From Thermoplasmata archaeon (GTDB lineage: Archaea > Thermoplasmatota > Thermoplasmata > GCA-020350865): DNA of 64,000 bases. The notes beneath the pieces were generated by a model. That model did no database searches and had not been told where the DNA came from. It was given only the letters and a program-made list of their open reading frames with translations. Below are positions 687 to 52,547 of the stretch, in pieces. Where the stretch lies: the NCBI GenBank assembly GCA_020348445.1, contig CP070751.1:16832-80831 (forward strand), in the 5' to 3' direction. The position numbers and the translations under genes were made by a program. Positions within the stretch are counted from its first letter, which is position 1. Every line of letters begins with the position of its first letter.

Positions 687-878
687 TTACTCTATCTCAT
701 CCCCTCTTGAACGAATATATACGTTCAGTTCATCCAAATATAATCCAGTTCTGATACACCATCTAACATATGTGGACATGTCCGTATTCAGCCTATCGGC
801 CTCTTTTTTTACATGCTCTAACAATTCTGGATCGATTCTCACCCTGATGGTCTTGGTATATTTTTCCTCAACCGTCAT
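687..878 (-). CDS. ribbon-helix-helix (CopG/Arc/MetJ-like) DNA-binding protein, paralog A
   Basis: 63 aa. N-terminal beta-strand then two helices (KTIRVRIDPELLEHVKKEADRLNTDMSTYVRWCIRTGL). Clear paralog of 1083-1268 and 5742-5933 (shared YTK..V/IR.DPELL..VK.....TD.S.Y/FVR.CIRTG.YL). Confidence 0.75.
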   Translation of the reverse strand: MTVEEKYTKTIRVRIDPELLEHVKKEADRLNTDMSTYVRWCIRTGLYLDELNVYIRSRGDEIE

Positions 879-980
879 TTATGATTCACCACTAGCGTCT
901 ATTTCATGCATTTTTCGATTCACGTATTATAATTCACAAGATCGTTTTCCAAACAGTGAATTGTTGTGACTTTCATATAA

Positions 981-1005
981 CCCTTTGTGACTACATGTGC
1001 CCACA
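981..1005. promoter_or_regulatory. conserved palindromic motif, copy 2 (CCCTTTGTGACTACATGTGCCCACA)
   Basis: 22/25 identical to 488-512. Sits between RHH gene 1083-1268 and the start of RHH gene 687-878. Confidence 0.45.
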
Positions 1006-1082
1006 TGATTGCCTTTTCTTCCTCATCTGGAGGAAAGGGATTGTTCCCAATCATGGATTCTAAGATATGGCCATACATATTT

Positions 1083-1268
1083 CTACTCCTCGCTTTTTGA
1101 TTTTAGAAACTTGTTCACGTCCTTTAGGTACAATCCCGTTCTGATACACCATCTTACATAGGTGGACAAATCAGTGTCAAGCTTCTTGACTTCCTCTTTA
1201 ACCAGGGCAAGAAGCTCAGGGTCCACCCTCACCTTGAGGATTTTGGTGTACTTCCCCTCTTTCTCCAT
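1083..1268 (-). CDS. ribbon-helix-helix DNA-binding protein, paralog B
   Basis: 61 aa, MEKEGKYTKILKVRVDPELLALVKEEVKKLDTDLSTYVRWCIRTGLYL. Very close to 5742-5933. Own AT-rich promoter region in the 125-nt gap after the GTPase gene. Confidence 0.75.
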   Translation of the reverse strand: MEKEGKYTKILKVRVDPELLALVKEEVKKLDTDLSTYVRWCIRTGLYLKDVNKFLKSKSEE

Positions 1269-1393
1269 TTTATTTCCTCTGCAGTCTTACCATAATAATA
1301 TTTCATACTAAAAAAGGTTCTTGATGGGTATTAAAGCCTGAGATTTGGCCAAATAAAAATAGGTTATACGAGGCATATCGGGGTATTTTCTCA

Positions 1394-2266
1394 TCATTTG
1401 ATGTCATTGGCCAGCTCCCTTCTTCTTTCTAGATTGGAGAAAACTGTCTTTTCATCCATGAACTCGTTCTCTGCCTCTGCAAAATATTCCACAGCCTTGA
1501 GTATCCCTTCTTTTGTGGGTTTGTTTATATCGAGTCCGGCCCTGGCTATCTCCTGACGAAGGATCACCATGGCCATCCTGGAATCAGAAAATCCCTCGCA
1601 GAAATCAACGATTATTACATCAAGTGCGCCTATAGGGGTGGTTCGGTCAGAATTTCGGCGTATGCCTGTTGCCGTAAGGATTTCATAGACTTTTTTTACT
1701 GGATCTTCATACTTACCTTCAGCAAGAACAAGATGCCCAAGTGCTTCAAATGCCTCCTCAACATTAATTGCCTCCTTGGCACTTGTGGAATAATTTGTTT
1801 TCAATGTACCTCTGAGGATTGTATCAGCAGCGCTGTTGTACCTTTTGGCCATATCCTCCAATTCCTCGGGCTGGAACTCGAAGTCTTCTTTCAAATCCGA
1901 CTTGTTGCACACGAAGATCATGGGCACCTCCTCCACGACCTTGAACAAAAGGGGAATCCAGTATCGCTCCAGACTTTTTAGGGTCTCCTTTCTTGTCAGG
2001 TCTGCTACCAGAATGGCACCGTCTACTCCCACGAACGTCCTGGTTTGAACGGCACTGTACCCTTCCCTGCCGATGAGATCCCAGATCACGAATGTGAGGT
2101 TGTGGGTCTGATCAGGTCTTTGGATCAAAAGGTTCTTTTTAGTGATCTTGCAGCCGACTGTGGAGATGTAGGAGCTTTCGAACACATCGAAGACATATCT
2201 TCGAATGAGGCTTGTCTTGCCCACTGCACTGTCCCCTAAAAGGGCTATCTTCTTTTTCACTGTCAA
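1394..2266 (-). CDS. Ras/Rab-like small GTPase fused to a ~110-aa C-terminal domain of unknown family (paralog 1)
   Basis: All five G motifs are readable: G1 GDSAVGKT, G2 YISTVG, G3 WDLIGRE, G4 NKSD, G5 TSAK. TTG start preceded by AAAGGTGAACAA, the same initiation region as paralog 5952-6830. The C-terminal half (TTPIGALDVIIVDFCEGFSDSRMAMVILRQEIARAGL...) is conserved in the paralog. Confidence 0.85.
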   Translation of the reverse strand: MTVKKKIALLGDSAVGKTSLIRRYVFDVFESSYISTVGCKITKKNLLIQRPDQTHNLTFVIWDLIGREGYSAVQTRTFVGVDGAILVADLTRKETLKSLERYWIPLLFKVVEEVPMIFVCNKSDLKEDFEFQPEELEDMAKRYNSAADTILRGTLKTNYSTSAKEAINVEEAFEALGHLVLAEGKYEDPVKKVYEILTATGIRRNSDRTTPIGALDVIIVDFCEGFSDSRMAMVILRQEIARAGLDINKPTKEGILKAVEYFAEAENEFMDEKTVFSNLERRRELANDIK

Positions 2267-2435
2267 TTGTTCACCTTTCTTTGTACAATATTTTCGTATC
2301 CAATAAACTCTGGGCTATCGATTGGTGGCTAATGGCAATGAAAATACTTATGTTTATTTGTGATAAGACATAAGAAGGATTTAGCCATTCTTTTTCAATA
2401 TAAAAAATAGAAAATATTAAGGTACGGCGACTGTT

Positions 2436-4337
2436 CTATATGCCCAATTTTTTCCTGTTCGCCTCTATATGGGCCAAAATACCATCAGCAGCTTTGACTG
2501 GATCCTTCTCCACATTCATCACCCCGCCAGTCACCTGCTTGCAATCTTGAGTTAGGAGCTTCACAAGATCCGGTCCTCCAGTTACAGTGGGAACTGGATT
2601 CACATAAGTATAGAGTCCAAAAGCCAAAGCGAACACGGCATCTATTGTAGCCTTCTGCTCCATGTACTCAGGTGCACACGCTGCAACGGGTAAATCTGGA
2701 ATGGGCACATCTCCCAAGGCTTTGGAAACCGCCCCAACAAGATCAGCTAGTCGGCCTGTATCAGTGCACGTTCCGAAACTGAGAACTGGGGGAATCCCAA
2801 GTTTCTCACATAGGCCTTTAAGTCCCGATCCAGCCAGTTCCTTTGCTTGGGGGCTGCAAAGACCAGCAACCTGCACCCCACCGTTTCCGCAGCCCAAGGA
2901 AAGCACAAGGATGTCTCTTTTTATCAATTCCTTGACCATCCTTACAGTGTGAACATCCTGACCAGTGTCTCTTAGGGTTGTGCAGGAAACCATTCCCACC
3001 ACGCCTCTTATTACTCCATCCTTTATCGCCTCAAGCAAGGGATCCAGTTTTCCCCCCAGGGCCTCTAGTATACTTTCAGTGGAAAAACCCACAATCGCTT
3101 CTTTTACAGGCAATCCTGAGACAGGCTCATTTGATGACCTACGATCCTTGAAATTATCAATTGCCATCTCAAGAAGTCGGGAGGCTTGCGCAACTGCTCT
3201 ATCGGGAATATAATCCACTCGATCCTCTACTCCTTCAAAGGCAACAACTTCACTTATGGGAACAAGTTTGAACTTATATTTTTGGGCATATATTGGATCA
3301 ATGGGCATGGAGCAGTTCATATCACATGCAAAAAGATCAACACATCCGCTGGCCAAAACTGCTTCCTGCATTATCCAGTTTCCTGTGAATCCATAAAAGA
3401 CATCGTCCATCTCCCATCTTTGGATCATCTCCTGGCCAGTCTCGATATTAGCGATAATGCGTAATCCTTTGGCTCCAGCTTTTTTGGCTTTGTCCTGCCA
3501 CTCTGGAGTTCGAGCCAATTGAACCATTGCAAATCCAAGAAAAGGCTCGTGGCCGTTGGGAAGGACGTTCACATAATCCGGATCCAATACTCCAAGATCC
3601 ACACGCATATTATGAGGCCTTGGAATGCCGAATAAAATATCCTGGCAGAACTCGTTCACTATTTGACTTTGGTATGCCATTGCGATACCCAAACGCATGG
3701 CTTTAAGTGCGAGGGTTGCATAATAGCCATCCACGTTTGTTAGGCAGGAGCTTGTAGAGAACATTATCTCCCCGTGAATCCCACCTGGAAATATCCCCAA
3801 TTTTTTCCAGAGCTCCTTACGCTCATTGGGAGCCAGGGCTTCAACAATTTCACTTGGCTCATCATACTTTCTATTGAATTCTTTCTCCACGAAATCACAA
3901 AGGCGAAGGGCAATTTCTTTTTCAGAGCCAGAGGTATCCACACCAAGGCGTGCAGCAAAGGTTTTCAGCTTCTCAGGCTCCTTGATCTCAAAGGGTGTTT
4001 TATCGTTTGCAGTTGCGTAAAGGGTTTTTATTGTCTGGTCTGTATGATAATGATAGGTGGAGGCACCCATGACATTTCTGAGGAGCATCATGCGCATGGC
4101 CATTCCGTCTCCTGTGATGCCGCACACTCCCCTTTTGTCCTTTGATACGTCTGCACGGCACGGACCGTTTGAGCAGAGATCGCATCGAACACCGCCCATA
4201 CAAAAAGGACAGCGTTTGTCGGGATCACCAAAGCCCTGGGCCTCGAAGCGGTCCCAGATATTTGTCATGTTGTCCGATTTGATCTTCTCGTACATTTTAC
4301 GAACTGATTCATGATAAGAAATCCTATCGTCTTTCAT
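2436..4337 (-). CDS. cooS: anaerobic carbon-monoxide dehydrogenase catalytic subunit (CooS family)
   Basis: 633 aa. N-terminal Cys pattern CPFCMGGVRCDLCSNGPCRAD...GVCGITGDGMAMR and the overall length are typical of Ni-CODH CooS. No cooF/cooC/acs genes in the window. Confidence 0.85.
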   Translation of the reverse strand: MKDDRISYHESVRKMYEKIKSDNMTNIWDRFEAQGFGDPDKRCPFCMGGVRCDLCSNGPCRADVSKDKRGVCGITGDGMAMRMMLLRNVMGASTYHYHTDQTIKTLYATANDKTPFEIKEPEKLKTFAARLGVDTSGSEKEIALRLCDFVEKEFNRKYDEPSEIVEALAPNERKELWKKLGIFPGGIHGEIMFSTSSCLTNVDGYYATLALKAMRLGIAMAYQSQIVNEFCQDILFGIPRPHNMRVDLGVLDPDYVNVLPNGHEPFLGFAMVQLARTPEWQDKAKKAGAKGLRIIANIETGQEMIQRWEMDDVFYGFTGNWIMQEAVLASGCVDLFACDMNCSMPIDPIYAQKYKFKLVPISEVVAFEGVEDRVDYIPDRAVAQASRLLEMAIDNFKDRRSSNEPVSGLPVKEAIVGFSTESILEALGGKLDPLLEAIKDGVIRGVVGMVSCTTLRDTGQDVHTVRMVKELIKRDILVLSLGCGNGGVQVAGLCSPQAKELAGSGLKGLCEKLGIPPVLSFGTCTDTGRLADLVGAVSKALGDVPIPDLPVAACAPEYMEQKATIDAVFALAFGLYTYVNPVPTVTGGPDLVKLLTQDCKQVTGGVMNVEKDPVKAADGILAHIEANRKKLGI

Positions 4338-4403
4338 TTTCTAATCCCCCAATTGGTAATGCCCACAATGATTTGGATTATTTAAAACTAATGTGTAGAC
4401 TTT

Positions 4404-4448
4404 TTACTCCCAATCCAAAAGCCTCTTGCCATGAGTTTTGAAAATGGA
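4404..4448 (-). pseudogene. remnant of the 3' end of a PAS-domain (DUF438-type) gene, copy 1
   Basis: Minus-strand reading SIFKTHGKRLLDWE-stop. The 18-nt core TTACTCCCAATCCAAAAG is identical to 9831-9848 and to the true gene end at 10879-10896. No upstream ORF body. Confidence 0.6.
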
Positions 4449-4603
4449 TTGGGGGGATATTCACTGGATTGAGGGAGTACCGTGCAAGCTATGTTATTAA
4501 AAAAAAGAAAAAGATATGCGGCGAGGGTTTTGGAAATAGTCTATAATTCATGTGTAACTACTGCTGGATCCCACCGCGAGTCTTCTATTCTGAAGAACCT
4601 AAT

Positions 4604-5581
4604 CTATCTTTTCCAGTCAGGCCACCAACCTTTTGCGAGCTCCTCAGTCTGTTCAGTGCCGAAGTCGTATATATATACAGTCCATCCAGAAACACGTCCG
4701 CCTCCAGAGATACGTTTAGGCTTGGAAAATGCCTGTTGGGAATCATCGGGCGACCATGAGGGATAACGACTTTCTCCGCCGGAAACAAGCTGGGCTGTGG
4801 GGTTGCTCTGTGTCAAGTCCAGAGTGTATATAGCACTTCCATCAGATCCATCAAGAGCTGGCCATAACGTAAATGCCAGTTTATCTGGAGAACGAGACCA
4901 ATCTAGATCCTTAATACCTGCCTGTTCATAGTCATAGACTGTCACTGGGTCTTCTTCTGAATCAATTGTTAAGATATTGATATACGATTTACCGTCGATT
5001 GCTGTTGTCCAGTCAACAAATGCTATTTCTGTACCATCAGGGCTCCAGGCAATATCCACTAGATAATGCCCTTCATCTGCAGTATAAAGTGTATCAACTG
5101 AACCGTCGCTGAGAGAAATTGTCTGAATCAGCCTTGGGCGCTCACTACCCGTAGAAGGATCGTAGAGCTTTTGAATAAAGGCTATTTCACCACCCAAAGG
5201 TGACCATGCAATACTATATTGGATGTCTTGACACAGGAGTGTTGGTTCGCCTGCCTGCACTTCTCCTTCATTCACAGATATTTCAATAGTGTATAGATCA
5301 TGTGGAATGTTCTTGGTATATGCTATTGATGTTCCATCCGGTGCCCAGGTTGGACTGTATAGATTACCTGCTGAATCCACTTCGACCTGGTTAGTTCCGT
5401 CAGCATTCATCACCATGAGTGCATCATTTTTACCTACTTTAATAAACGCTATTGCCGGATCTGCTGGTGGTTCCTCATCAGGTGGTGGTTTTGGCGGTTT
5501 TTTTGCGGTAGCCATGGGTATGGCCATGCTCACAAGCAAGGACACTAATACTATGCCGATTAACAGCTTTCCTAGTTTCAT
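4604..5581 (-). CDS. secreted/lipid-anchored TolB-like beta-propeller protein (PD40/WD40-like repeats)
   Basis: N-terminal hydrophobic signal (MKLGKLLIGIVLVSLLVSMAIPMATA) followed by a Pro-rich linker. Repeated W(S/A)PDG..IAF motifs are typical of PD40 blades. Confidence 0.75.
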   Translation of the reverse strand: MKLGKLLIGIVLVSLLVSMAIPMATAKKPPKPPPDEEPPADPAIAFIKVGKNDALMVMNADGTNQVEVDSAGNLYSPTWAPDGTSIAYTKNIPHDLYTIEISVNEGEVQAGEPTLLCQDIQYSIAWSPLGGEIAFIQKLYDPSTGSERPRLIQTISLSDGSVDTLYTADEGHYLVDIAWSPDGTEIAFVDWTTAIDGKSYINILTIDSEEDPVTVYDYEQAGIKDLDWSRSPDKLAFTLWPALDGSDGSAIYTLDLTQSNPTAQLVSGGESRYPSWSPDDSQQAFSKPKRISGGGRVSGWTVYIYDFGTEQTEELAKGWWPDWKR

Positions 5582-5647
5582 ATTCTTTTCCTCCGATTAT
5601 CTTTCTAAATAGTCAAAAATCCTAAATCAGATTAATAAAGATAAAAT

Positions 5648-5669
5648 TTTGTCGGTACATGTACATACA
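5648..5669. promoter_or_regulatory. conserved palindromic motif, copy 3 (TTTGTCGGTACATGTACATACA)
   Basis: 16/22 identical to copy 1 and contains the perfect palindrome GTACATGTAC. Lies between RHH gene 5742-5933 and the start of the beta-propeller gene (5581). Confidence 0.4.
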
Positions 5670-5741
5670 TGACTATTTAATAAATAACGGAATTAAATAA
5701 ATCCCAATCCAAGAAACTCATCATCTTTTCCAATAAATTAC

Positions 5742-5933
5742 TCAATATAGCTTTCCTTTCCTCGATCTTAACTCTACATTCATCTCCTTCAAATAAAATC
5801 CAGTGCGTATGCACCCTCTGATAAACGCGGATATATCGGTCCCTTGTACCTTTGCCTTCTTTTTCACTTCTTCAAGGAGTTCCGGTTCAATTCTTATGGT
5901 GAGAACTTTAGTGTACTTTCCTTCCTTTTCCAT
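5742..5933 (-). CDS. ribbon-helix-helix DNA-binding protein, paralog C
   Basis: 63 aa, MEKEGKYTKVLTIRIEPELLEEVKKKAKVQGTDISAFIRGCIRTGFYL. SD AAGGTGG upstream. Starts 18 nt after the GTPase stop. Confidence 0.75.
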   Translation of the reverse strand: MEKEGKYTKVLTIRIEPELLEEVKKKAKVQGTDISAFIRGCIRTGFYLKEMNVELRSRKGKLY

Positions 5934-5951
5934 CTCGCCACCTTTTTTGAA

Positions 5952-6830
5952 TCAGTCTCCAACAATGCTTTCGGCCCACTCTCTTCTTCTTTTCATATTG
6001 GCTAAAACAATATCTCGATCTTTAAACTCACTCTCTGCTTCTGCTAAATACTCAACAGCTGTTAGAATCTTCTCTTTTGTGGGATTGTTAACATCGATTT
6101 TCGCTCTTGCAAGTTCCTGGCGCAGGATTAGCATTGCTATTCTCGAATCCTTGAAATCCTTGCAGAAATCCACCATTATAGCATCCAATGCACCAATGGG
6201 CGTTGTCTTATCCAAATTTCTCTGAATACCTGTTGCAAAGAGAGTTTCAAGGAGAATCTCAACAGTATTATCTGGTTTATACTCACTTAGCATAAAATTC
6301 CCCAAGCTCTCAAAGGCGCATTCGACATTGTTCCCATCTTTTGCACTGGTCGCATAGCAGGATTTTAATCCCTGAAATGTTGTTTTAAGGGATTGACCGC
6401 TGTATCTTCCCGCCAAATCCTCCATATCCTCGAATCCGAACTCGTATTTTCCTTTCAGATCGGATTTGTTACAAGTAAACACCAAGGGCACATTCTCTAC
6501 TATCTTGAACAAAAAAGGAATCCAATATTTCTCAAGGTTCTCCAGGGTCTCCTTTCTCGTAAGATCCGCCACAAGGATTGCACCTTCCACACCCACAAAG
6601 GTCCTGGCATGAAGGGCGTGATATCCCTCTCTACCGATAATGTCCCAGATCATAAATTTGACATCTACATTAGCGTTGGATCTATGAATGGAAAATTCCT
6701 TCATGGTTACCTTGCTTCCTATTGTGGAGGTATAGGAATCCTCGAACTGGTCGAAAACGAATCTTCGAATGAGGCTGGTTTTGCCTACGGCGCTGTCGCC
6801 GAGCAGGACGATTTTCTTTTTTATTGCCAA
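5952..6830 (-). CDS. Ras/Rab-like small GTPase fused to a ~110-aa C-terminal domain of unknown family (paralog 2)
   Basis: G1 GDSAVGKT, G2 YTSTIG, G3 WDIIGRE, G4 NKSD, G5 TSAK. TTG start after AAAGGTGAACAG. 39 nt downstream of the STAND ATPase gene. Confidence 0.85.
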   Translation of the reverse strand: MAIKKKIVLLGDSAVGKTSLIRRFVFDQFEDSYTSTIGSKVTMKEFSIHRSNANVDVKFMIWDIIGREGYHALHARTFVGVEGAILVADLTRKETLENLEKYWIPFLFKIVENVPLVFTCNKSDLKGKYEFGFEDMEDLAGRYSGQSLKTTFQGLKSCYATSAKDGNNVECAFESLGNFMLSEYKPDNTVEILLETLFATGIQRNLDKTTPIGALDAIMVDFCKDFKDSRIAMLILRQELARAKIDVNNPTKEKILTAVEYLAEAESEFKDRDIVLANMKRRREWAESIVGD

Positions 6831-6869
6831 CTGTTCACCTTTCCGTTTGTGATTTTGTAGATTCCACCT

Positions 6870-9683
6870 CTACAAATCCTTGAGCGCTGCTCTCACCTTC
6901 TCTTTTTTCTTTTCCAACTTCAATTCCTTGTAAATATCGATTGCCTTGTTTAGTTGTTCTTTCGCTTTATTAGGATCTCCCTTAGCCTTCCACATCAATC
7001 CAAATTCGAAGTGGGATTCTGCCAATTCCCTTTTTATTCCAATTCCCTTAAAAATCTTTACGCTCTCTTCAAAATTCTCAATGGATTCCTTCCATTTTCC
7101 CTGGTTTGTAAATATAATTCCTAAAATTCTTCTCGAGCTTGCTAGGGTCACTTTTGAACCAATCTCTTTAGATAGTTCAAATGATCGTTTGCAGAAATCA
7201 AATGCTCTTGTCAGATCCTTTTTTCTAAGATAGGCTTCCGCTATAAACCAATAGTTGTAAGCCATCAGTATCCGGTAGCCGATCTTTATAACTATTTTCA
7301 TGCTCTTTTCGAATTGATCAAGGGCTTTGTCATATTCTCCTTTATAAAAGTGTGCAACACCAATGTTGTGTAAAATTACAGCAATCCTCTTTTGGTCACC
7401 CATCCTCTCATGTATTTCTTTGGTCCTATCATAGTATTCAAGGGCTTTGTCATACTCTTCTATTTCAACATGAACAATACCAATGTTCATCATGTGAATG
7501 GCAGTAAATTGCATATCACCGATTTGCTCCGAAATGCCTAGACTTTTTTTGTAGTATTCGAGAGCTTCATTATATTTTCCAATCCACATATGAATTATGC
7601 CGATATTGTTGAGGGACCCTGCGATTCCTTTTTTATCTTCTATTATTTCCCTTATCTTAAGGCTCTTATCGTAATATCCAAGCGCCATTTCTATTTCTCC
7701 TCTTTCTTGGTGCACAGTGCCAATTAGATTTAGGGCATCCGCTTTTTCCCTGCATTCCTCATCTCTAACCAAGAATAGTGCTTCATTACAAATTTTTATT
7801 GATTCATTATATCCTCCCATATGCCTATGACAGTTCCCAATCCCAATCTTAATCTCAGCTTTTTTCTTATTATCAATGCTCAATTCCAATGCACGCTCGT
7901 AAGCCTTGATACTATTCTGATAATCCCCAATCAAGGAATAAATACCTGCCATTTCTTCGAGTGTTTTCCTCCTCTTTTTCGGATTATCCTCAAGTCCAAG
8001 AGCATAGGAATAGAATCTTATTGATTCTTCATTTGAATAATCCTTCTTTGCCTTCTCCGCCGCTTTAAGGAGATAGTGAAGTGCTTTGTCCTTATTCTTG
8101 CATTGATAATAATGAAATGCTAAATCTTCAACCACTTCATCCAGATTATCTTGGCTCAGTGTCTCAACCGAGTTTGCGATTATCGAGTGATAATCCCTTC
8201 TCAATTCTTCTGGTATTTCGCTGTAAAGCACCTCTTTTACTTTGGCATGGTCGAACTTGAAATATCCATTATGGGATTTGAGTAATCTATGAACTTGCTC
8301 TAAACTTCTCAACTGCTCTAAAAGTTGAGTTCTGTTCGTATCCAGGGCATAGGTTAGGATCGATGATGTGAACGTTTCTCCGATGATAGAAGCATAATCC
8401 AATACCTTCCTGTCTTCTTTTTCCAATCTGTTCAATCTTCTTTCAATCACGTTGTATATTTTGGATGGGATTTCGATATCTTTTAGATCTTTGGCTAACT
8501 TCCATGTTCCCTCATCTTCCAAAATGATCTTTTCATCGACTAGGAATTTTATTAAAAGGATAAAGAACAATGGATTCCCTTCGGTCTCCTTGTAGATTCG
8601 ATTCTTAAATTCATCAGTGAAATCGATTTTTCCAAGCAGGACAGACAAAAATTCGTCCATAATCTCTTCGGGTAATCTCGCAAGCTCCATCTTTTTCAAC
8701 AGATCCTCGCGGTCCATCAACTGCATGGTTCCCACAAGAGGATGACTCTTTTCATCCATTGAAGCAACATCCTCAGGTCTATAAGTGCCCATAATAAATA
8801 GCCCAGTCTCTCTCGTGTTTCTAGCGAGGTAGTGCATTAGAGCTAAGGATGATAGGTCTGTCCATTGTAAGTCTTCTATGCATAAAAGAGTGGGCATTTG
8901 CTGTGCCTGCCTTATCAATCCCAAAGAGACATTCTCGAATAATAAATTCCTTCTAATCTTTGGATCATCTTTACCATAATAGATACCGTCATACTTTCCG
9001 GATGTGATAAGAGGTTTGAGGAGCTCGTCGATTCCAGCAACCTTTTTTTCGTCACCACCCCATTTCTCAAGGATTCGTTTAAAAGTTTTTGTTATCTTTA
9101 ATAGGATCTCTCTCATATCGTTTAGCAGGAATTCATTTTCTCTTCCTGTTAGTATAACCACAAGATTGGTATCCTTATAATTATCGATTAATATACGATA
9201 ATTCTGGTATCCTAACGAATTCAAAGTTCCTTTTTCTTCCTCTCCAGACAGCTTTGAAAGAGATTCATTAAGAAAGTCAGTTATAGTGGTAAACATTGAT
9301 GCAAAAACATCAGGATTAAGTTCTGTTTCTTCTCTCACAAGATTTCTTATTAATATGCCCGCATTGGTTACCAGATAAACAGCTTCCACTCGTGGGGCTT
9401 CCTCTGCAAAAAGCGATTCCAGGCCTACAGATCTCAGGGCTTCCATAATGGGCATGAAGGGAGTAAGGGATTCATACATGCAGTTACCTGACAAGATCTG
9501 GAAGCCTTTGGATTGAGCAATCTCTTTCAGCTCGTTTACCAAACGGGTCTTTCCGATTCCTGCCTCCCCTGAGATGAATATTGTCCTTCCTTGCCCTTCC
9601 ATGGCTCTTTCTAGATAAGACTGCAGTTCTCTGAGTTCATCCTCGCGACCAACCATCTTGGGTTGGAGATCTAGATTCTGCAT
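6870..9683 (-). CDS. STAND-type (AAA_16/COG3899-like) ATPase with Roadblock/LC7-like insertion and C-terminal TPR array
   Basis: Likely start is ATG 9683 (MQNLDLQPKMVGREDEL...). The 45 codons upstream in the ORF track run through an AT-rich promoter. Walker A GEAGIGKT, Walker B-like LLCIEDLQWTD, and more than 10 TPR-like repeats (G.Y.EAL.YY.K.L.I). See the separate insertion feature. Confidence 0.8.
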   Translation of the reverse strand: MQNLDLQPKMVGREDELRELQSYLERAMEGQGRTIFISGEAGIGKTRLVNELKEIAQSKGFQILSGNCMYESLTPFMPIMEALRSVGLESLFAEEAPRVEAVYLVTNAGILIRNLVREETELNPDVFASMFTTITDFLNESLSKLSGEEEKGTLNSLGYQNYRILIDNYKDTNLVVILTGRENEFLLNDMREILLKITKTFKRILEKWGGDEKKVAGIDELLKPLITSGKYDGIYYGKDDPKIRRNLLFENVSLGLIRQAQQMPTLLCIEDLQWTDLSSLALMHYLARNTRETGLFIMGTYRPEDVASMDEKSHPLVGTMQLMDREDLLKKMELARLPEEIMDEFLSVLLGKIDFTDEFKNRIYKETEGNPLFFILLIKFLVDEKIILEDEGTWKLAKDLKDIEIPSKIYNVIERRLNRLEKEDRKVLDYASIIGETFTSSILTYALDTNRTQLLEQLRSLEQVHRLLKSHNGYFKFDHAKVKEVLYSEIPEELRRDYHSIIANSVETLSQDNLDEVVEDLAFHYYQCKNKDKALHYLLKAAEKAKKDYSNEESIRFYSYALGLEDNPKKRRKTLEEMAGIYSLIGDYQNSIKAYERALELSIDNKKKAEIKIGIGNCHRHMGGYNESIKICNEALFLVRDEECREKADALNLIGTVHQERGEIEMALGYYDKSLKIREIIEDKKGIAGSLNNIGIIHMWIGKYNEALEYYKKSLGISEQIGDMQFTAIHMMNIGIVHVEIEEYDKALEYYDRTKEIHERMGDQKRIAVILHNIGVAHFYKGEYDKALDQFEKSMKIVIKIGYRILMAYNYWFIAEAYLRKKDLTRAFDFCKRSFELSKEIGSKVTLASSRRILGIIFTNQGKWKESIENFEESVKIFKGIGIKRELAESHFEFGLMWKAKGDPNKAKEQLNKAIDIYKELKLEKKKEKVRAALKDL
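9084..9395 (-). other. Roadblock/LC7 (MglB-like) domain-like insertion inside the NTPase domain
   Basis: About 100 aa between Walker A and Walker B: VEAVYLVTNAGILIRNLVREETELNPDVFASMFTTITDFLNESLSKL...LNSLGYQNYRILIDNYKDTNLVVILTGRENEFLLNDMREIL. By eye this follows the beta-beta-alpha-beta-beta(-alpha) pattern of Robl_LC7. No profile search was run. Confidence 0.55.
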
Positions 9684-9830
9684 CTTCCCCCCACAATGAT
9701 TTATTATCCCCGGGCTATTTATATACAAAACGTTTTTAAAATATATAAGGTTATATGTAAATTTGTGAGATTTTAAAAAATATGAGAGGAATTTAGCAAT
9801 GTTTCTAAAATATTGCATTTTTATAACTTT

Positions 9831-9898
9831 TTACTCCCAATCCAAAAGCCTCTTTTCGCCCTCGAGTTTTTTCATATCAGTTACATCCTGCGAGACCA
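9831..9898 (-). pseudogene. remnant of the 3' end of a PAS-domain (DUF438-type) gene, copy 2
   Basis: Reads ...MVSQDVTDMKKLEGEKRLLDWE-stop versus the intact gene end LEVSQDVTDIKKLEGENRLLDWE-stop. About 68 nt align to 10879-10946 with 6 mismatches. An upstream in-frame stop leaves no gene body. Confidence 0.7.
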
Positions 9899-9981
9899 TG
9901 AGAGGGATAATAGCTACAATAAGTTAAAAAAAAAACCCAAAGGTCAACTCTCGTCATTACTTTAAAATCCAAACCATAGTG

Positions 9982-10485
9982 TTAACTTTTAGCAATTCTT
10001 TCCATAATAGTTTTATAGAGAACCACTGTCATTCTAAAGTCACTCTCAGCAAGCTTGGCAATTACCTCCTTGGCCTTCTTTTTATCGATTTTTTTCATCT
10101 CGACCGCAGCTACAATCAAACCCAAAAGCCCGGTATAATCTCTATTCTCAACATCCGCAACCCTTCTTGCATTTAGCTCGTCTATAATCAGCCTCGCCTT
10201 TTTTTCAGTGAAAAATAAAGTCGCCTCGCCTTCGCCTAAACCATATTTTGTAAACTGTTTCACATTCCCCTTCACTCTAACTGATATTATCCAATCTCCC
10301 ATTGCTTGCATGATCTTGTCAGTTTCTGGATAGTTATGGCCAAGAAGCTCTTTCTCGATGGATTTTGTAATATATATTTTACCCAACAATTTTTTTAAAA
10401 GGTCAAGCTCTCCAATCCTGGATAACGCGATTATGGTGGATGAGTCCACAAAAGTTCTCATACTGACACTCAGCTTTTGAGCCAT
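9982..10485 (-). CDS. PIN-domain toxin (DUF3368-like)
   Basis: The N-terminus VDSSTIIALSRIGELDLLKKLLGKIYITKSIEKEL matches the typical DUF3368/PIN start. Overlaps the upstream antitoxin gene by 16 nt. An alternative start is ATG 10461. Confidence 0.7.
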   Translation of the reverse strand: MAQKLSVSMRTFVDSSTIIALSRIGELDLLKKLLGKIYITKSIEKELLGHNYPETDKIMQAMGDWIISVRVKGNVKQFTKYGLGEGEATLFFTEKKARLIIDELNARRVADVENRDYTGLLGLIVAAVEMKKIDKKKAKEVIAKLAESDFRMTVVLYKTIMERIAKS

Positions 10486-10790
10486 TTCTTGGCTTTCCTT
10501 GTGTCCTTCTCAAGTTCGCTTTCCGAGTATTTGAAGAATGGTATCTCTCTTTTCCCCAGATAGTCAGCCATTTCTTGGATGCTTACATCCGCAAACTCCG
10601 CTGCCCTACATAATGTAAATTCATTGCTCAGGTATTTCTTTTGAGCGATTTCCAGTTTTAAAACCTTAATACCTTCATGAAGTGCATTTCTTGCCACTTC
10701 TGATTTGGTCATATGGAGAATCTCGATTAACTCCTCCATTTCCGATATTTCATCATCGGGTAATCGTATCTGCAAGTTTTCCATATTCAA
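10470..10790 (-). CDS. UPF0175-family antitoxin-like protein
   Basis: 106 aa with an HTH-like segment CRAAEFADVSIQEMADYLGKREIPF, characteristic of UPF0175 partners of DUF3368 PIN proteins. N-terminal RHH-like strand IRLPDDEISEMEELI. Confidence 0.65.
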   Translation of the reverse strand: MNMENLQIRLPDDEISEMEELIEILHMTKSEVARNALHEGIKVLKLEIAQKKYLSNEFTLCRAAEFADVSIQEMADYLGKREIPFFKYSESELEKDTRKAKKWLKS

Positions 10791-10878
10791 CCCATTACAA
10801 TATAATGTTTTGTAATGATATAAAGGTTGTGGTTGTTATTATCTGCAAGTTGTAAGGCAATTGTTTTTTGGGGTTCCT

Positions 10879-12681
10879 TTACTCCCAATCCAAAAGTCTG
10901 TTTTCACCCTCAAGTTTTTTGATGTCAGTTACATCCTGCGAGACTTCAAGGGTGCCCTTGTAAATACCCTCAGAATCCCTCACAGCAAAATATCTAATAT
11001 GTATGAACTTACCATCCAACTGCAGCCAGAACTCGGCAACGTCCTTGTAACCTGCCTTGAATTGATTTAGTATTTTTTGGACGGTATCCACGCTCTTTGA
11101 GGGATGGCATTTCTGAACCTTCCTTCTGATCACTGCGGGACTTCTTGGGAAGATCCTCTCCTTGGTTGCAGAATAATACGCAACCCTATCAGTCTCATCA
11201 ACAAAAGAAATATCCACTGGGAGATGAGTCAGTATCAAATCGATCTGCTCCTTGGATAGAGCGCCTGTAGCCAGAGGTATCTTCTGCTCTTTAACAGGTA
11301 TTTCCAGTATTTGCACCTCTTTTGGCATTTCAAAATCCTCAGGTGGCCATTTCTCCTCAGGTTCAACCCAGGCATAACCTATCTCCTCTTCACCAGATCG
11401 CACCTTTGTCCACTCTGATTGGGATAGTTGTTCAAGACTCATGGGAAACAGTATGTGCTCCTCCTTGTAGATCATCTCCCGGGTTGTTGGGATCAATTCC
11501 TTTAACGTCTTCACAAGTGCGGTGGGTTCCTCCTGGGATAACAGCTCACTTGCCTTTTTTAGCAATGTCCTTACATCATCATGTATTCCCCACATGACCT
11601 GTGAAGGTCCTGAGACATCATGGGACTCAAGCATCGGAAACAGCTGGTTCTCCTTTCTCAGATAATGATAGTCGATCTTGGCAAAGCTTTCAAGTAATCT
11701 CCCCAGTCCTCCACGACAGTCCAAAAATACAGTCTCATTTGGAGGATCCCCCAGCCTTTTCAGCATCTCCTCGATTTCATCCATGATCTTTTCAGCTTCC
11801 CTGTTCTCCTTCATGAATGTGTGAACAGGGTGACCTGGGGGTGCAGTTGGAATCTCTTTTTTATCAAGCGATTCCTTGAAAATCTCAACATGAACATCAC
11901 AAAGTCTCTTTACTTCTTCCTCGGGAATACCCTCATCAATCAATTGTTGCTCCATCTTTGATATCTCGGAGGGATCGACATCCTTTATGAGCTCTCTGAA
12001 TTTATTCTTCAGAACATTCATGTCCTCCCCTTCATGAACCCCCCTTATGATTTCCTTTAGAACCTCCTGCCTTTTATCAGATTCTACTAACTGTTCTTTG
12101 GGTTCCTCAAAAGGTTCTTTAGGTTCTTCAAAAGGCTCTTTAGGTTCCTCAATAGGTTCCCTAGGTTCCTCAAAAGGTTCCTTGGGCTCCTCAATATGTT
12201 CTTTGGATTCCTCAATAGGTTCCTTGGGCTCCTCAAAAGGTTCTTCAAAAGGTTCTTTGGGCTCTTCAAAAGGTTCTTTGGGTTCCTCAAAAGGTTCTTT
12301 AGGTTCTTCAAAAGGTTCTTTGGGTTCCTCACCAGGCTCCTTGGGCTCCTCAAAAGGTTCCTTGGGTTCTTCAAAAGGTTCCCTAGGTTCTTCAAAAGGT
12401 TCCTTGGGCTCTTCAACAGTTTCTTTGGAAAATTCAACCTTAATAACAAGCTCTTCGTTTGTCTTCTCCAAAACCTCCCGTGCGATCTCATTCATAAGCA
12501 GGTTAAGTTCGATTTTACCCATGGATGCTACTTTTTCCAATGTGGCAACCTTGGCCATGGTCTTACGTAAGATACGGCTCTTCAATTGTCGTAAGTCAGG
12601 CGAAAGTTCGGCTAAAAAATCCACCAGAAAAGGATATCTGCTCAATAGAACATCAAGTTTGGTATTAGCGTCAATTTTCAT
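10879..12681 (-). CDS. DUF1858 / DUF438 / hemerythrin-like / PAS domain protein with internal acidic Pro-rich repeat
   Basis: N-terminus MKIDANTKLDVLLSRYPFLVDFL (DUF1858-like). Middle region has His/Glu-rich hemerythrin-like helices (HPVHTFMKENREAEKIM, DYHYLRKENQLFP). C-terminal PAS domain (FVDETDRVAYYS...IRYFAVRD). 108-aa EEPKEPF repeat. Confidence 0.8.
   Translation of the reverse strand: MKIDANTKLDVLLSRYPFLVDFLAELSPDLRQLKSRILRKTMAKVATLEKVASMGKIELNLLMNEIAREVLEKTNEELVIKVEFSKETVEEPKEPFEEPREPFEEPKEPFEEPKEPGEEPKEPFEEPKEPFEEPKEPFEEPKEPFEEPFEEPKEPIEESKEHIEEPKEPFEEPREPIEEPKEPFEEPKEPFEEPKEQLVESDKRQEVLKEIIRGVHEGEDMNVLKNKFRELIKDVDPSEISKMEQQLIDEGIPEEEVKRLCDVHVEIFKESLDKKEIPTAPPGHPVHTFMKENREAEKIMDEIEEMLKRLGDPPNETVFLDCRGGLGRLLESFAKIDYHYLRKENQLFPMLESHDVSGPSQVMWGIHDDVRTLLKKASELLSQEEPTALVKTLKELIPTTREMIYKEEHILFPMSLEQLSQSEWTKVRSGEEEIGYAWVEPEEKWPPEDFEMPKEVQILEIPVKEQKIPLATGALSKEQIDLILTHLPVDISFVDETDRVAYYSATKERIFPRSPAVIRRKVQKCHPSKSVDTVQKILNQFKAGYKDVAEFWLQLDGKFIHIRYFAVRDSEGIYKGTLEVSQDVTDIKKLEGENRLLDWE
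12091..12414. repeat. 21-nt (7-codon) tandem repeat encoding about 15 copies of EEPKEPF
   Basis: Directly visible in the DNA and the protein. It generates three spurious repeat-frame ORFs in the track. Confidence 0.95.
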
Positions 12682-12750: not shown

Positions 12751-13755
12751 CTACCTAAGATATTGACCGCAAGTTTTGCATTTGGATTCATGCTCCAGAT
12801 TGACTGTTTGACAGCTTGGACATTTTACATAACCCACTGGGACAACTGCTGAATCATCCCCCTTTGGTATTTGCTGTTCATAATCCATATCTCTTTTATA
12901 CCGAGGTTGCGGGCTCTGATATGTGGGATAATGACCTCCTGAATCTTGATATGTGTGTGGAGGTGTTACCTCCATTAGGTCAGACGGTATTATATTGACC
13001 TGTCCTGTCGTGGCATACCGATAGAGGGCCGCGGTAAGCACTCCCTGGGCTGCTGTGGAAATGCAGAAAAGAACTATGAAATAGACTATCCCCACACTCA
13101 GGCCCACCCAAATCCAAATTCCGCCTGCCATGATCCCCAAGACGATTGGAATCACTCCTAAAAGACCGAATAAGAAGAAGATTATTCCCAGGCCAAAGGA
13201 GGATATAAACGTCTCTCCCCATGTATCCTTGAAAACATGGGCACTTCTTTTGACGGCTTTAAAAACTGATACCTTCTCATATATCAAAACAGGTATTATA
13301 AAGAAAGTGGCCATGGTCCACGCAAATCCAATTAATGAGATCATGATTCTTCCCAGGGCATCCATTCTTTCTTCAAGTGCCCTTAATATCAAACCAACTG
13401 TTGCGGCAAGTACTGCCCACCCCAGTATTCCCTTTATATTTTCATTGGCGATTCTAAAACCGTCTTTTAAGGTGGGGTCGCCGCCCTGTAACCTAATGGT
13501 AGCGCATCCGATCACAGCGGTATTGAAATATATTCCAATAAAATAAAGTATAAAATAGAGCAAAATAAACAATACCACCATTAGGATACCATTTGAAAGG
13601 AAAAGACCTGTAAAAAAGATGCCCAGGATAAATGTCATTCCTATCACTGCCATAACTATACCTGCTATCAGAGGAAACAGCAGTATTTCCTTATCCTTTC
13701 TTATGACACCCAAGCTGATTTTCATGAGCTCCCAACTACGACCAAATCGACCCAT
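12751..13755 (-). CDS. polytopic membrane protein with C-terminal zinc-ribbon
   Basis: 334 aa with about 6 hydrophobic helices. Tail is Pro/Tyr/Gln-rich and ends CPSCQ...CKTCG. Confidence 0.6.
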   Translation of the reverse strand: MGRFGRSWELMKISLGVIRKDKEILLFPLIAGIVMAVIGMTFILGIFFTGLFLSNGILMVVLFILLYFILYFIGIYFNTAVIGCATIRLQGGDPTLKDGFRIANENIKGILGWAVLAATVGLILRALEERMDALGRIMISLIGFAWTMATFFIIPVLIYEKVSVFKAVKRSAHVFKDTWGETFISSFGLGIIFFLFGLLGVIPIVLGIMAGGIWIWVGLSVGIVYFIVLFCISTAAQGVLTAALYRYATTGQVNIIPSDLMEVTPPHTYQDSGGHYPTYQSPQPRYKRDMDYEQQIPKGDDSAVVPVGYVKCPSCQTVNLEHESKCKTCGQYLR

Positions 13756-40215: not shown

Positions 40216-40219
40216 TTTA

Positions 40220-51911: not shown

Positions 51912-52547
51912 ATGAGGATATTGGCTATTGCAGATGTCCATGGCTCAAAAGAGGCAAGAAAGAAAGTTGATGCCCAGATAAGGGATTATATTCCAAACAT
52001 CGTGATCGTGGATGGCGATATTACACAGTTCGGCCCCCCTGCATGGGCAGAGGAATTTCTAAACAGTATTATGCTGAAGACATTGGCTTTACCAGGTAAC
52101 TGCGATCCAAGGGGAGTTCTGGAGGCAATTGAGAACAGCCAGGCAATTCCCCTGCATGCCAAAAAAGTGGATGTCGGAGATTATGCTGTGGTTGGCCTGG
52201 GCGGCTCAAATGCCACACCTTTTGGCACACCCTTTGAGCTTTCAGAGGATGAGATATACAGTGCCTTGGATGATCTCATGGTTGAGGGAGCTCTGCTGGT
52301 TGTCCATGCCCCACCGAAGGGGCATGTAGATAAAACCTCAAGCCAGACACACTCGGGAAGCCAGGCAATCGCAGACATCATTTCCAAATACTCACCACCT
52401 CTTGTTATCTCTGCACATATACACGAGGCAAGAGGTGTGGAAAGAGAAGGGGCAACCACTTATGTGAACCCCGGACCTGCTTCAAGGGGCTACGCAGCTG
52501 TTATAGATTTAAATGGTGAGGTAAAGGTCGAGCTGATCCAAAGCTAA
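51912..52547 (+). CDS. calcineurin-like metallophosphoesterase
   Basis: MRILAIADVHGS...VDGDIT...GNCD...HAPP...SAHIHE motifs. Confidence 0.8.
   Translation: MRILAIADVHGSKEARKKVDAQIRDYIPNIVIVDGDITQFGPPAWAEEFLNSIMLKTLALPGNCDPRGVLEAIENSQAIPLHAKKVDVGDYAVVGLGGSNATPFGTPFELSEDEIYSALDDLMVEGALLVVHAPPKGHVDKTSSQTHSGSQAIADIISKYSPPLVISAHIHEARGVEREGATTYVNPGPASRGYAAVIDLNGEVKVELIQS

Follow-up and report, generated by a model that had tools for sequence, protein, structure and literature searches.

In Escherichia coli, the prophages e14 and phage 21 integrate into the 3' end of the protein gene icd and supply a new end for it. ICE accretion with integrase-less cis-mobilisable elements (CIMEs) occurs in Streptococcus thermophilus, tandem degraded elements (tycheposons) are found at tRNA genes in Prochlorococcus, and in the minimal mobile elements of Neisseria, cassettes occupy a constant position between a pair of conserved genes. 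Core genes also flank the 'core defence hotspots', whose construction was called enigmatic (Johnson et al. 2023, PMC10250203). At Rhs and T6SS loci, 3' regions orphaned downstream of a conserved anchor were ascribed to homology-facilitated illegitimate recombination (HFIR) (Kirchberger et al. 2017, PMC5361080), and C-terminal displacement arrays are known for Rhs/CDI toxins (Jackson et al. 2009, as cited in PMC5361080).

In the window analysed here, 64 kb of an uncultured Thermoplasmata archaeon (the window being the whole stretch of DNA), the 3' end of a PAS-domain sensor gene occurs three times around two gene cassettes. As with e14 and phage 21, the differences between the duplicated and the resident 3' end are mostly synonymous and the target gene remains functional, but those prophages have their own integrase and a fixed crossover, whereas here no integrase was found and the crossovers differ between events. 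Like CIMEs and tycheposons, the locus has, at the 3' end of a gene, three att-like direct copies around two elements in tandem, and cargo-only elements without recombinases; however, neither the integrase partner nor the common att core of those systems was found. As in the Rhs/CDI and Vibrio cholerae T6SS arrays (PMC5361080), incoming DNA would be anchored on a conserved upstream gene, a new 3' end and cargo would be added with the old 3' end left as an in-frame orphan downstream, and successive events would build an array without an integrase; HFIR was proposed for Rhs/T6SS. In those arrays the displaced end is a variable toxin domain and the cargo its immunity gene, whereas here the end is conserved at the protein level, the cargo consists of whole unrelated operons (TA, AbiE, ATPase, STAND), the orphans measure only 18-71 nt and the host is archaeal.

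Gene-end repeats

The features of the locus are listed in Table 1. Orthologs of the PAS gene showed 72-85% identity. An internal 21-nt tandem repeat in this gene codes for acidic heptads.

Table 1. Features of the PAS-cooS locus (window positions).
Feature	Position	Strand	Basis and remarks
PAS gene, DUF1858-DUF438-hemerythrin-PAS_10 sensor gene, conserved anchor	10879..12681	-	Pfam
Copy 3	10878..10944	-	functional PAS 3' end, VSQDVTDIKKLEGENRLLDWE-stop, 'beta' allele
TA cassette	9899..10877	-	Pfam; PADLOC PDC-S70
UPF0175 antitoxin	10470-10790	-	Pfam
PIN/DUF3368 toxin	9982-10485	-	Pfam; 16-nt overlap with antitoxin
Copy 2	9826..9896	-	orphan PAS end, 'alpha' allele, VSQDVTDMKKLEGEKRLLDWE-stop + 5 nt
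X, STAND upstream region	9684..9825	-	local alignments and shuffle controls
STAND NTPase, AAA_16 + TPR	6870..9683	-	Pfam
Ras/Roc-like GTPase 'b'	5952..6830	-	Pfam
RHH protein 'b'	5742..5933	-	Pfam; 70% aa identical to L092 RHH
PD40 beta-propeller protein	4604..5581	-	Pfam; N-terminal hydrophobic segment
Distal spacer of 5.4-kb cassette	4428..4603	-	last ~20 nt (4428-4448) weakly PAS-end-like
Copy 1	4399..4427	-	orphan: last 21 coding nt + stop codon + 5 nt; identical to copy 2
Ancestral PAS-cooS intergenic region (by comparison)	4338..4403	-	alignment, BLAST
cooS, Ni-CO dehydrogenase catalytic subunit	2436..4337	-	Pfam Prismane E = 1.7e-143; synteny
D, possible cooS-STAND intergenic remnant	2267..2435	-	similar to X (p ~0.011)
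'Type a' module remnant	687..2266	-	GTPase a 1394-2266, RHH 1083-1268, RHH 687-878

The last 66-67 nt or so of the PAS gene (copy 3, 10878-10944) matched copy 2 at 9830-9896 with 6 mismatches, and the 29-mer ACTTTTTACTCCCAATCCAAAAGCCTCTT showed 29/29 identity between 4399-4427 and 9826-9854, both much as the first-pass annotation had reported from the sequence. The shorter copy that it had placed at 4404-4448 matched perfectly up to 4427, while 4428-4448 resembled the PAS end weakly and with gaps. A 25-nt core, with ≤3 mismatches allowed, occurred at exactly 3 sites in the 64 kb (0.00 expected from shuffles), self-BLAST of the 64-kb window gave no further gene-end orphan repeats, and self-comparison placed the repeat at cassette boundaries only, not as a common intergenic element. 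Copy 3 differed from copies 1 and 2 at 5/29 common positions, and a 19-nt block, CTTTTGGATTGGGAGTAAA, was common to all three window copies. The copy 3/TA-proximal junction was the only one seen independently (L081); the copy 2 and copy 1 junctions rest on the assembly of this MAG.

Frame and stop codon were intact in copy 2, and frame and a stop codon were kept in the orphans of the window and of the relatives' loci L092 and L093. The differences between copies 3 and 2 were all at third codon positions (6/6; P ~0.0014 if positions were random), so that these are two functional alleles of the gene end and not a decayed in-place duplication. The comparison thus showed that the repeats are allelic and diverged as functional gene ends. 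It is extremely improbable that the copies are decayed tandem PAS paralogs, products of recombination among paralog ends as was also suggested at first, or a common intergenic repeat unrelated to the cassette boundaries: no relative had a second PAS gene at the locus, the orphans begin abruptly at cassette junctions, the three occurrences in 64 kb all lie at boundaries and in a metagenome scan every occurrence of the sequence was at the end of a PAS-type gene. All that speaks for this explanation is the nature of the repeats as pieces of a gene end.

Ancestral junction and inserted cassettes

The empty site that had been proposed for a search, with the PAS stop codon followed by ~60-66 nt and then cooS, was present in 6 distinct orthologous loci (L082, L083/84, L085-87, L088, L089 and L091), which bears out the view that the copies bracket inserted DNA. 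Window positions 4427-2437 aligned to the relatives' last ~25 nt of PAS, intergenic region and cooS, and 12084-10877 aligned to the relatives' PAS gene. A conserved leader (…AATCATTGTGGGCATTACC…) and a TATA-like box lie in the intergenic region, which was collinear with the relatives' empty sites. These alignments showed that cooS followed the PAS gene ancestrally and that the PAS end of the ancestral arrangement survives as copy 1, still joined to the conserved cooS promoter region. Since copy 1 and what follows it down to cooS are collinear with the ancestral junction, ~6.45 kb (4428-10877) is an insertion relative to the ancestral state, made in two steps.

The gene content first read for the two cassettes (beta-propeller, RHH, GTPase and STAND; PIN/UPF0175) agreed with Pfam. 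The TA cassette has its own promoter and an 83-nt distal flank, and a T run after the toxin gene was read as a terminator. Its nt identity to L093 5620-6479, which lies at another site, was 87%, in comparison to 78-80% for the backbone. The 5.4-kb cassette is a signalling/defence-like module that matched the block after cooS in L092. Its STAND protein, with a true start at ~9683 by homology and not at 9818, was 69% aa identical to the L092 STAND, which sits downstream of cooS. GTPase b showed 85% aa and 84% nt identity to L092, where the nt backbone was 73% (PAS) and 75% (cooS), and the RHH-PD40 intergenic region (5582-5741) showed 84% nt identity to L092 9308-9382. X was homologous to the L092 cooS-STAND intergenic region and to the cooS-downstream region of the window (p ~0.01 each). 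The PD40 protein had a counterpart with 87% aa identity in a second closed Thermoplasmata MAG, and a homolog search for the distal spacer found none. The low GC content that had been taken as a sign of foreign origin does not serve as such, with cooS at 47.1% and not ~55%, and the STAND gene (38.5%) low-GC in relatives too.

The collinearity of this cassette with the L092 stretch after cooS would also suit an intragenomic rearrangement, in which a [PAS end-cooS-module] unit was tandemly duplicated, one cooS and one part of the module were lost at random so that cooS and the STAND module changed places, and only the TA pair was inserted. A partial second module (GTPase a, RHH, RHH) indeed lies after cooS without a STAND gene downstream of D, D resembles X, and the exact cooS-leader 12-mer AATCATTGTGGG, found once only in relatives, upstream of cooS, occurs again at 9690-9701, just upstream of the STAND gene. 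However, GTPases a and b shared only 62% aa and ~72% nt identity and X and D ~68%, yet the non-coding copies 1 and 2 are identical (29/29), so that not both can come from one recent duplication. The modules are also of different types from different lineages: b resembles L092, whereas the 'type a' genes are positional orthologs of GTPase-RHH-RHH downstream of cooS in L083 and L093. The direct similarity of D to the relatives' intergenic regions was not significant. With three recent events needed and the TA, AbiE and DUF4143 cases unexplained, such a rearrangement was considered quite improbable.

Insertions in relatives and search for mobility genes

At the PAS-cooS spot, three other relatives carried different cargo, either a DUF4143 ATPase or an AbiE pair. 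An AbiEi/AbiEii pair with the orphan 'GAAGGGAAGAAGCGGCTTTTGGATTGGGAGTAG' was found in L093-95, and a convergent AAA_14/DUF4143 ATPase with the orphan 'CTAATAGACTGGGAGTGA' in L092. L001 had the same cassette type as L092, on a contig that ends before the far junction; an orphan PAS end was thus present in every other-cargo case with the far junction assembled. The DUF4143 cassettes of L001 and L092 were 80.5% identical (PAS 71%). Across the events, repeat lengths were 29, 67, ~18 and ~36-50 nt and repeat left edges -63, -21, ~-15 and ~-33 to -45, and the cargo started 1-6 nt from the stop codon in 4/4 cases. Overall, the comparison showed the PAS-cooS junction as a reused insertion hot spot in this Thermoplasmata lineage, and the identities of X, GTPase b, the RHH-PD40 spacer, the TA cassette and the DUF4143 cassette point to cargo drawn from the gene pool of relatives.

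In agreement with the first-pass annotation, no integrase or transposase was present in the cassettes or the window by Pfam scans of the cassette genes and most other ORFs ≥150 aa; the unscanned window ORFs matched, by position and length, genes on a relative's contig whose Pfam families are not those of recombinases. The four cassettes and the called genes of the relatives' loci likewise gave no integrase. No tRNA or Rfam matches were found, and pattern scans of viral contigs gave no attP-like copy.

These absences weigh against att-site accretion, in which a trans-acting recombinase would integrate cassettes site-specifically with the PAS 3' end as attB, a live rival that we nevertheless regard as unlikely. 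The cassettes would be two elements in tandem, either cis-mobilisable without an integrase or integrative and decayed, with the three copies as their attL, hybrid att and attR. Accretion would yield the tandem three-copy architecture, and such a recombinase would fit the use of the same few nucleotides after the stop codon in 4 independent insertions into PAS genes only 70-80% identical, the perfect and sharp-edged 29-nt direct repeat, the block common to the three copies, one DUF4143 cassette type at the same site in two distant lineages and the existence of empty sites. However, every cassette has a different repeat length and left edge, and the TA-event crossover cannot fall in the common 19-nt block because copy 3 differs from the identical copies 1 and 2 just upstream of and after it. 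In addition, the TA cassette occurs at other sites in L093 and L096 without PAS-like sequence there, and no conserved cassette termini were found across the three TA-cassette contexts. Of the first proposal, that integration regenerated the gene end, serial insertion with a rebuilt end is retained, while classical site-specific integration is doubtful.

Proposed mechanism

Homology-anchored additive recombination with DNA of relatives, akin to 'C-terminal displacement', was judged the best reading, with slightly better than even confidence. We infer the pathway of recombination, and which of the two events came first, as follows. The incoming DNA would derive from related archaea and carry a PAS-end homolog beside the cargo, with 15-67 nt of homology as the anchor. 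The first event would have placed a complete 'type b' module (X, STAND, GTPase, RHH, PD40) after the PAS stop codon (+5 nt) and would have repeated the final 21 coding nt of PAS, its stop codon and 5 nt beyond the module, giving the perfect 29-nt repeat of copies 2 and 1. In the second event, the UPF0175-PIN cassette would have come with a foreign PAS-end allele (copy 3), and the resident end, copy 2 (66 nt + 5), would have been displaced downstream. The joining may have proceeded by HFIR, in which one joint is homologous and the other, near where the homology ends, illegitimate, or by single-crossover (Campbell-type) integration of a circularised fragment. Either route would leave the sensor gene intact, the cooS promoter in place and the displaced gene end as an orphan, without an element-encoded integrase.

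As copies 2 and 1 are identical over 29 nt and copy 3 differs at 5 of these, the TA-event crossover lies upstream of repeat position 45. It must fall beyond the other event's 29-nt repeat or right at its margin, and the two window events cannot share a single crossover point. Against homology-anchored recombination, the cargo joints are tighter than random illegitimate joints would give, for which selection keeping PAS and the cooS promoter intact is the sole account offered, and the perfect, sharp-edged 29-nt repeat resembles an att core. The anchor model also needs intermediates that were not seen, as no donor genome with these cargos directly after PAS was found.

Like the minimal mobile elements of Neisseria and the core defence hotspots, the PAS-cooS junction is a fixed spot, empty in some lineages and with varied defence/TA cassettes in others, without mobility genes; for those systems, spread through homologous recombination in the flanks was proposed. 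Duplication of the flanking gene end was not described there, whereas here the duplicated allelic gene ends would be the footprint of the joining reaction itself.

Ancestral empty site and extent of the inserted DNA

Relatives were defined as contigs carrying orthologs of the PAS gene (a DUF1858-DUF438-hemerythrin-PAS_10 sensor gene) with 72-85% amino acid identity. An empty site, which the first-pass annotation had proposed to look for as a PAS gene directly followed by the Ni-CO dehydrogenase gene cooS, was present in six distinct lineages (L082; L083/84; L085-87; L088; L089; L091). In these, approximately 60-66 nt separate the PAS stop codon from cooS, and the spacer is strongly conserved (…ACACATTAATTTTATATAATCCAAATCATTGTGGGCATTACC…). 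Positions 4427-2437 of the window aligned with the last ~25 nt of the relatives' PAS gene, the spacer and cooS, while positions 12084-10877 aligned with the PAS gene. These alignments indicate that copy 1 of the PAS 3' end is the ancestral gene end with the cooS promoter region still attached and that the ~6.45 kb between copy 1 and the present PAS gene end is inserted DNA. As in an integrative element, the insert is flanked by direct repeats of the 3' end of the target gene and the unoccupied site is found in relatives.

The coordinates and gene calls of the first-pass annotation held, and all features at the PAS-cooS locus lie on the minus strand (table). Read on that strand, the PAS gene ends in copy 3 and is followed by UPF0175 and PIN/DUF3368 genes (the 1.0-kb TA cassette), copy 2, the 5.4-kb cassette, copy 1, cooS and a type-a module of GTPase a, RHH and RHH genes. 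The 5.4-kb cassette is a type-b module of STAND (AAA_16+TPR), Ras-like GTPase b, RHH b and PD40 propeller genes. A Logan contig (L081, SRR14739666) carried the PAS gene of the same strain, with a 99.9% match to the window outside the internal repeat, together with the junction between copy 3 and the TA cassette. The PAS proteins of the two sequences differ in length (600 aa in the window and 540 aa in the Logan contig) because of the internal repeat, a 21-nt tandem repeat of ~16-20 units which encodes acidic EEPKEPF-type heptads and is absent from PAS orthologs of ~490 aa. Exact-protein look-ups returned no record of the window PAS and cooS proteins.

Coordinates of features in the window and in contigs of related archaea
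Feature	Sequence	Position (nt)	Strand
Spacer D	window	2267-2435	minus
cooS	window	2436-4337	minus
12-mer AATCATTGTGGG, cooS leader	window	4362-4373	minus
29-mer in copy 1	window	4399-4427	minus
Inserted DNA	window	4428-10877	minus
Spacer X	window	9684-9825	minus
12-mer AATCATTGTGGG, just upstream of STAND start	window	9690-9701	minus
29-mer in copy 2	window	9826-9854	minus
Copy 2	window	9830-9896	minus
TA promoter with palindrome ATTACAAAACATTATATTGTAAT	window	10793-10815	minus
Copy 3 (last 66 PAS nt and one base)	window	10878-10944	minus
PAS gene	window	10879-12681	minus
21-nt tandem repeat in PAS gene	window	12020-12488	minus
DUF6159 membrane-protein gene	window	12751-13755	
Second low-GC block	window	37465-41377	
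70-nt tandem repeat	window	52534-52733	
Two Ig-like-domain (Big_5/Big_13) genes	window	56763-63913	
Example of repeat shared by these genes	window	56881-56948 and 60810-60877	
Segment matching the RHH-PD40 spacer	L092	9308-9382	
Region just downstream of cooS, with the TA pair	L093	5518-6654	
57-nt repeated segment	L096	5650-5706 and 6450-6506	

Allelic nature and edges of the gene-end repeats

A search for the repeat core with up to 3 mismatches returned three sites only in the 64 kb, copies 1-3 (0.00 expected from shuffles), and self-BLAST of the window found no further gene-end orphan repeats. The sole match of a DNA pattern scan of metagenome_contigs was the DUF438 gene end of an unrelated genome, and scans of viral_contigs gave no match. 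Copies 3 and 2 had six mismatches, all of them at third codon positions (P ~0.0014 under random positions), with frame and stop codon intact in both, which marks them as two alleles that diverged while working as gene ends. The orphan ends of L092 and L093 likewise finish in …DWE-stop, with stop-to-stop changes. The repeats are not an in-place duplication that later decayed, and their allelic nature argues against transposase-type target duplication or replication slippage for the TA event. An origin as decayed PAS paralogs, or as copies of some generic repeat, is effectively refuted.

Copies 2 and 1 were identical over 29/29 nt, including 5 nt beyond the stop codon, and copy 3 mismatched both at 5/29 positions, which lie within the terminal block and immediately before it. 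Since copy 1 equals copy 2 and copy 3 differs, at least the last 25 nt of the present PAS gene must have arrived with the TA event, with a crossover upstream of repeat position 45 (at or before 44). The 29-nt repeat of the 5.4-kb event begins at repeat position 43, thus the TA crossover lies outside it or at its very edge, and no crossover core was common to all att-like copies. Relative to the stop codon, the left edges of the repeats were at -63 (TA event), -21 (5.4-kb event), about -15 (L092) and about -33 to -45 (L093), so that repeat extents differ in the relatives as well, while the right edges of all repeats were 1-6 nt past the stop codon.

A site-specific recombinase acting in trans, with CIME-like accretion of cassettes, would explain recurrent insertion at one spot as well as the tandem three-copy architecture. 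However, edges that vary between events do not fit easily with one recombinase with a fixed crossover, and Pfam scans of the cassettes and the other window ORFs scanned, as well as the gene tables of relatives (including L092 and L093-95), showed no integrase or transposase, in agreement with what had first been noted from the sequence. This explanation is considered unlikely.

The PAS C-terminus (…LEGEKRLLDWE) was conserved across all lineages compared, and comparison with the relatives did not discriminate between copies 2 and 3 as the native allele. The pattern of sliding-window identity shifted in the last ~120 nt of PAS, which might point to a donor-derived tract running from the new 3' end into the anchor gene but could just as well stem from derived ends in L082 and L093. 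Local alignments gave no significant sign that the duplications reach into the cooS promoter at copy 3, L092, L093 and L001 (p = 0.05-0.6), and further degenerate PAS-end fragments between copy 2 and STAND were marginal (p = 0.02-0.15).

Independent insertions and their cargo

In addition to the six lineages with an empty site, four lineages had an occupied PAS-cooS site, with four kinds of cargo overall and no mobility genes. Apart from the window, with its UPF0175-PIN pair, STAND-GTPase-RHH-PD40 module and orphan copies 2 and 1, L092 carried a convergent AAA_14/DUF4143 ATPase gene and, ahead of the cooS spacer, an orphan PAS end (CTAATAGACTGGGAGTGA), and L093-95 carried an AbiEi-like and AbiEii pair with an orphan end at the same place (GAAGGGAAGAAGCGGCTTTTGGATTGGGAGTAG). 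In L001, an L092-type cassette directly follows PAS and the contig ends short of the far junction. When placed on the lineage tree that follows from PAS and cooS identities, occupied and empty sites are interspersed, which indicates that the insertions were independent. Three of the four cargos matched PADLOC defence or candidate-defence families: PIN with PDC-S70, the DUF4143 ATPase with PDC-S01 and AbiEii with AbiEii.

Two other variable spots were observed nearby. The DUF6159 gene between a Fer4 gene and PAS was present in the window, L083 and L088 and absent from L085, L089, L091 and L001, a presence/absence polymorphism beside the same sensor gene, and no gene-end repeats were seen around it. 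The other spot is the region just downstream of cooS, including the cooS-STAND spacers of L083, L088 and L092. L093 has the TA pair there and L083 has two STAND genes; L085 and L089 carry unrelated genes, and the window lacks a STAND gene at this place. No duplication of the cooS end was seen in the region by eye.

The TA cassette

UPF0175 was matched with 44.7 bits (cutoff 27.9). The match of the second gene to DUF3368 was just under the cutoff (26.6 versus 27.3) and that to PADLOC PDC-S70 had an E value of 3.7e-25. A small antitoxin gene upstream of a PIN-like gene, with a 16-nt overlap, is the arrangement of a predicted type II toxin-antitoxin system. The cassette was found at three sites, namely the PAS end in the window, the cooS-STAND gap in L093 and, in L096, a position following a shikimate-pathway gene, and the conserved unit consisted of a promoter and the two genes. 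The three contexts shared no common terminal sequences, and there was no PAS-like sequence at the L093 and L096 sites. By eye, no duplication of the cooS end was seen at the L093 cassette, and a repeat search found no copy of the upstream gene's end near the L096 cassette.

A 17-nt inverted repeat (76% complementary) lies near the cassette ends, with no clear counterpart in L093 or L096 by eye. It was not taken as a terminal repeat because the search of the 1.1-kb stretch returned 15 short and imperfect inverted repeats, none of which convincingly marks both ends. Terminal inverted repeats and attC-like ends were therefore rejected for this cassette, whose inverted repeats are imperfect and whose ends are not conserved. 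Beside the L096 cassette, two copies of a 57-nt segment share 70% identity; the second copy is just upstream of the next ThiD/ThiN-type gene and may be a duplicated gene start. In the promoter upstream of UPF0175, the palindrome ATTACAAAACATTATATTGTAAT beside a TATA-like box is kept in the window, L093 and L096 (one substitution in L096) and is probably an autoregulation operator.

Relatedness and composition of the 5.4-kb cassette

The 5.4-kb cassette was collinear with the L092 block downstream of cooS. Amino acid identity to L092 was 69% for STAND, 85% for GTPase b and 70% for RHH b, and the PD40 protein was 87% identical to a protein of a related 4.23-Mb genome. Spacer X aligned with the L092 cooS-STAND spacer (p = 0.01), and the RHH-PD40 spacer was 84% identical at the nucleotide level to an L092 segment which is also followed by a gene beginning with a hydrophobic segment. 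The type-a module after the window cooS shared 72-77% identity with L083/L093, against only 60-66% with the type-b module. No STAND gene follows the window cooS; spacer D resembles spacer X (p ~0.011), which suggests a remnant of a cooS-STAND region.

Nucleotide identities between window and L092 were 84% for GTPase b versus 73% (PAS) and 75% (cooS) for the backbone, those between window and L093 were 87% for the TA cassette versus 80% (PAS) and 78% (cooS), and those between L001 and L092 were 80.5% for the DUF4143 cassette versus 71% (PAS). Across lineages, cassette genes thus tend to be more similar to each other than backbone genes are, which supports horizontal movement. No near-identical donor of the STAND module was found, the best non-self match being 67% identical, and the cassette flanks (9899-9981, 10843-10877 and 4428-4603) had no homologs in any fetched locus.

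The GC content of cooS, put at about 55% by the first-pass annotation, was measured at 47.1%, and that of STAND was 38.5%. Low GC as a sign of foreign origin was rejected, as STAND homologs at their usual position in relatives have 36-40% GC. STAND genes form a large family present in multiple copies in these genomes; the source genome has at least 3 paralogs and a relative of 4.23 Mb at least 8. The source genome (5.16 Mb) and this related MAG are unusually large for Thermoplasmata. A further AAA_16+TPR STAND-like gene lies, together with an archaeal ATPase_2 gene, in a second low-GC block (35-37%) of the window.

The 12-mer AATCATTGTGGG of the cooS leader is exactly repeated upstream of STAND and occurs once in relatives, upstream of cooS. 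The second copy may have been left by a rearrangement or may represent a regulatory motif common to the two genes, and its origin is ambiguous since the same stretch also aligns with the L092 STAND leader. Tandem duplication followed by random loss, swapping cooS and the module, predicts scars of which this 12-mer and the X-like spacer after cooS are partly what is seen. Nevertheless, the 29/29 identity of non-coding copies is irreconcilable with the ~70% identity of the adjacent modules, and such a history is judged improbable.

Elsewhere in the window, an apparently intergenic 70-nt tandem repeat (2.9 copies, 92% matches) and two adjacent genes for very large Ig-like-domain proteins, with internal and mutual repeats, were identified.

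Element class and proposed mechanism

No tRNA or Rfam match was found, and a tRNA or ncRNA as the true insertion target was rejected. There was no intI integrase, no attC-like cassette ends were found, and the TA cassette has its own promoter within the conserved unit in contrast to the mostly promoterless cassettes of integrons. The transposase, IS and MITE hallmarks were also lacking, the duplications being 29 nt (perfect) versus 67 nt (6 third-position differences). The locus did show the conserved anchor and in-frame orphan 3' ends with allele-like divergence that characterise C-terminal displacement arrays, the type ascribed to homology-facilitated illegitimate recombination (HFIR), also in L092 and L093, and the single inter-gene site, empty or differently filled, of minimal mobile elements and hotspots flanked by core genes.

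Additive recombination anchored on the PAS end is the best reading, held with slightly better than even confidence. DNA of a related archaeon, with a PAS-end homolog beside the cargo, would pair with the chromosome. By HFIR, the heterologous tail would be joined illegitimately a few tens of nt upstream of the end of the homology; by a Campbell-type route, a circular fragment would enter by a single crossover. Under either route the gene would be rebuilt and its former end pushed aside, and both would account for repeats that are allelic, in frame and of variable length, for the absent integrase and for a cargo drawn from the gene pool of relatives. Selection for an intact PAS gene and cooS promoter may have confined the surviving joints to a narrow zone. 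The type-b module would have entered first and the TA cassette second, an order suggested by copy 2 being equal to copy 1 and both differing from copy 3. The same argument has been made for 3' regions orphaned at Rhs and T6SS loci (PMC5361080). Weak points of the homology-anchored reading are that no donor arrangement was seen, that the tight clustering just past the stop codon and the perfect 29-mer look att-like, and that the identity pattern near the PAS end is ambiguous as to a donor tract. It is improbable that the conserved sensor-gene end is a dedicated archaeal platform for cassette capture, integron-like or 'homing', served by an unrecognised trans-acting recombinase or another, likewise unrecognised, targeting activity. 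On such a platform, defence and TA cassettes without an integrase would be serially inserted right past the stop codon, each with a replacement gene end.

Novelty and significance

Gene-end insertion sites with displaced ends and cassette hotspots flanked by core genes are already known kinds. New here are the archaeal setting, the absence of an integrase, a gene end that is conserved and not polymorphic, whole defence and TA operons as cargo, and independent occurrences with preserved junction footprints. In C-terminal displacement arrays the displaced 3' region is a polymorphic toxin domain with its cognate immunity gene, whereas here the PAS C-terminus is conserved and the cargo consists of independent operons.

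Hotspots between core genes, fixed sites that receive defence and TA cassettes lacking mobility genes, were called enigmatic by Johnson et al. (PMC10250203). The joining reaction has a readable footprint, allelic in-frame duplicated gene ends with breakpoints varying by event, which was found in four independent insertions of uncultured Thermoplasmata and makes hotspot building testable with existing metagenomic reads. The '3'-end displacement' pattern is thereby extended from bacterial polymorphic-toxin loci to ordinary archaeal genes, and short orphan gene ends are usable as markers for such hotspots.
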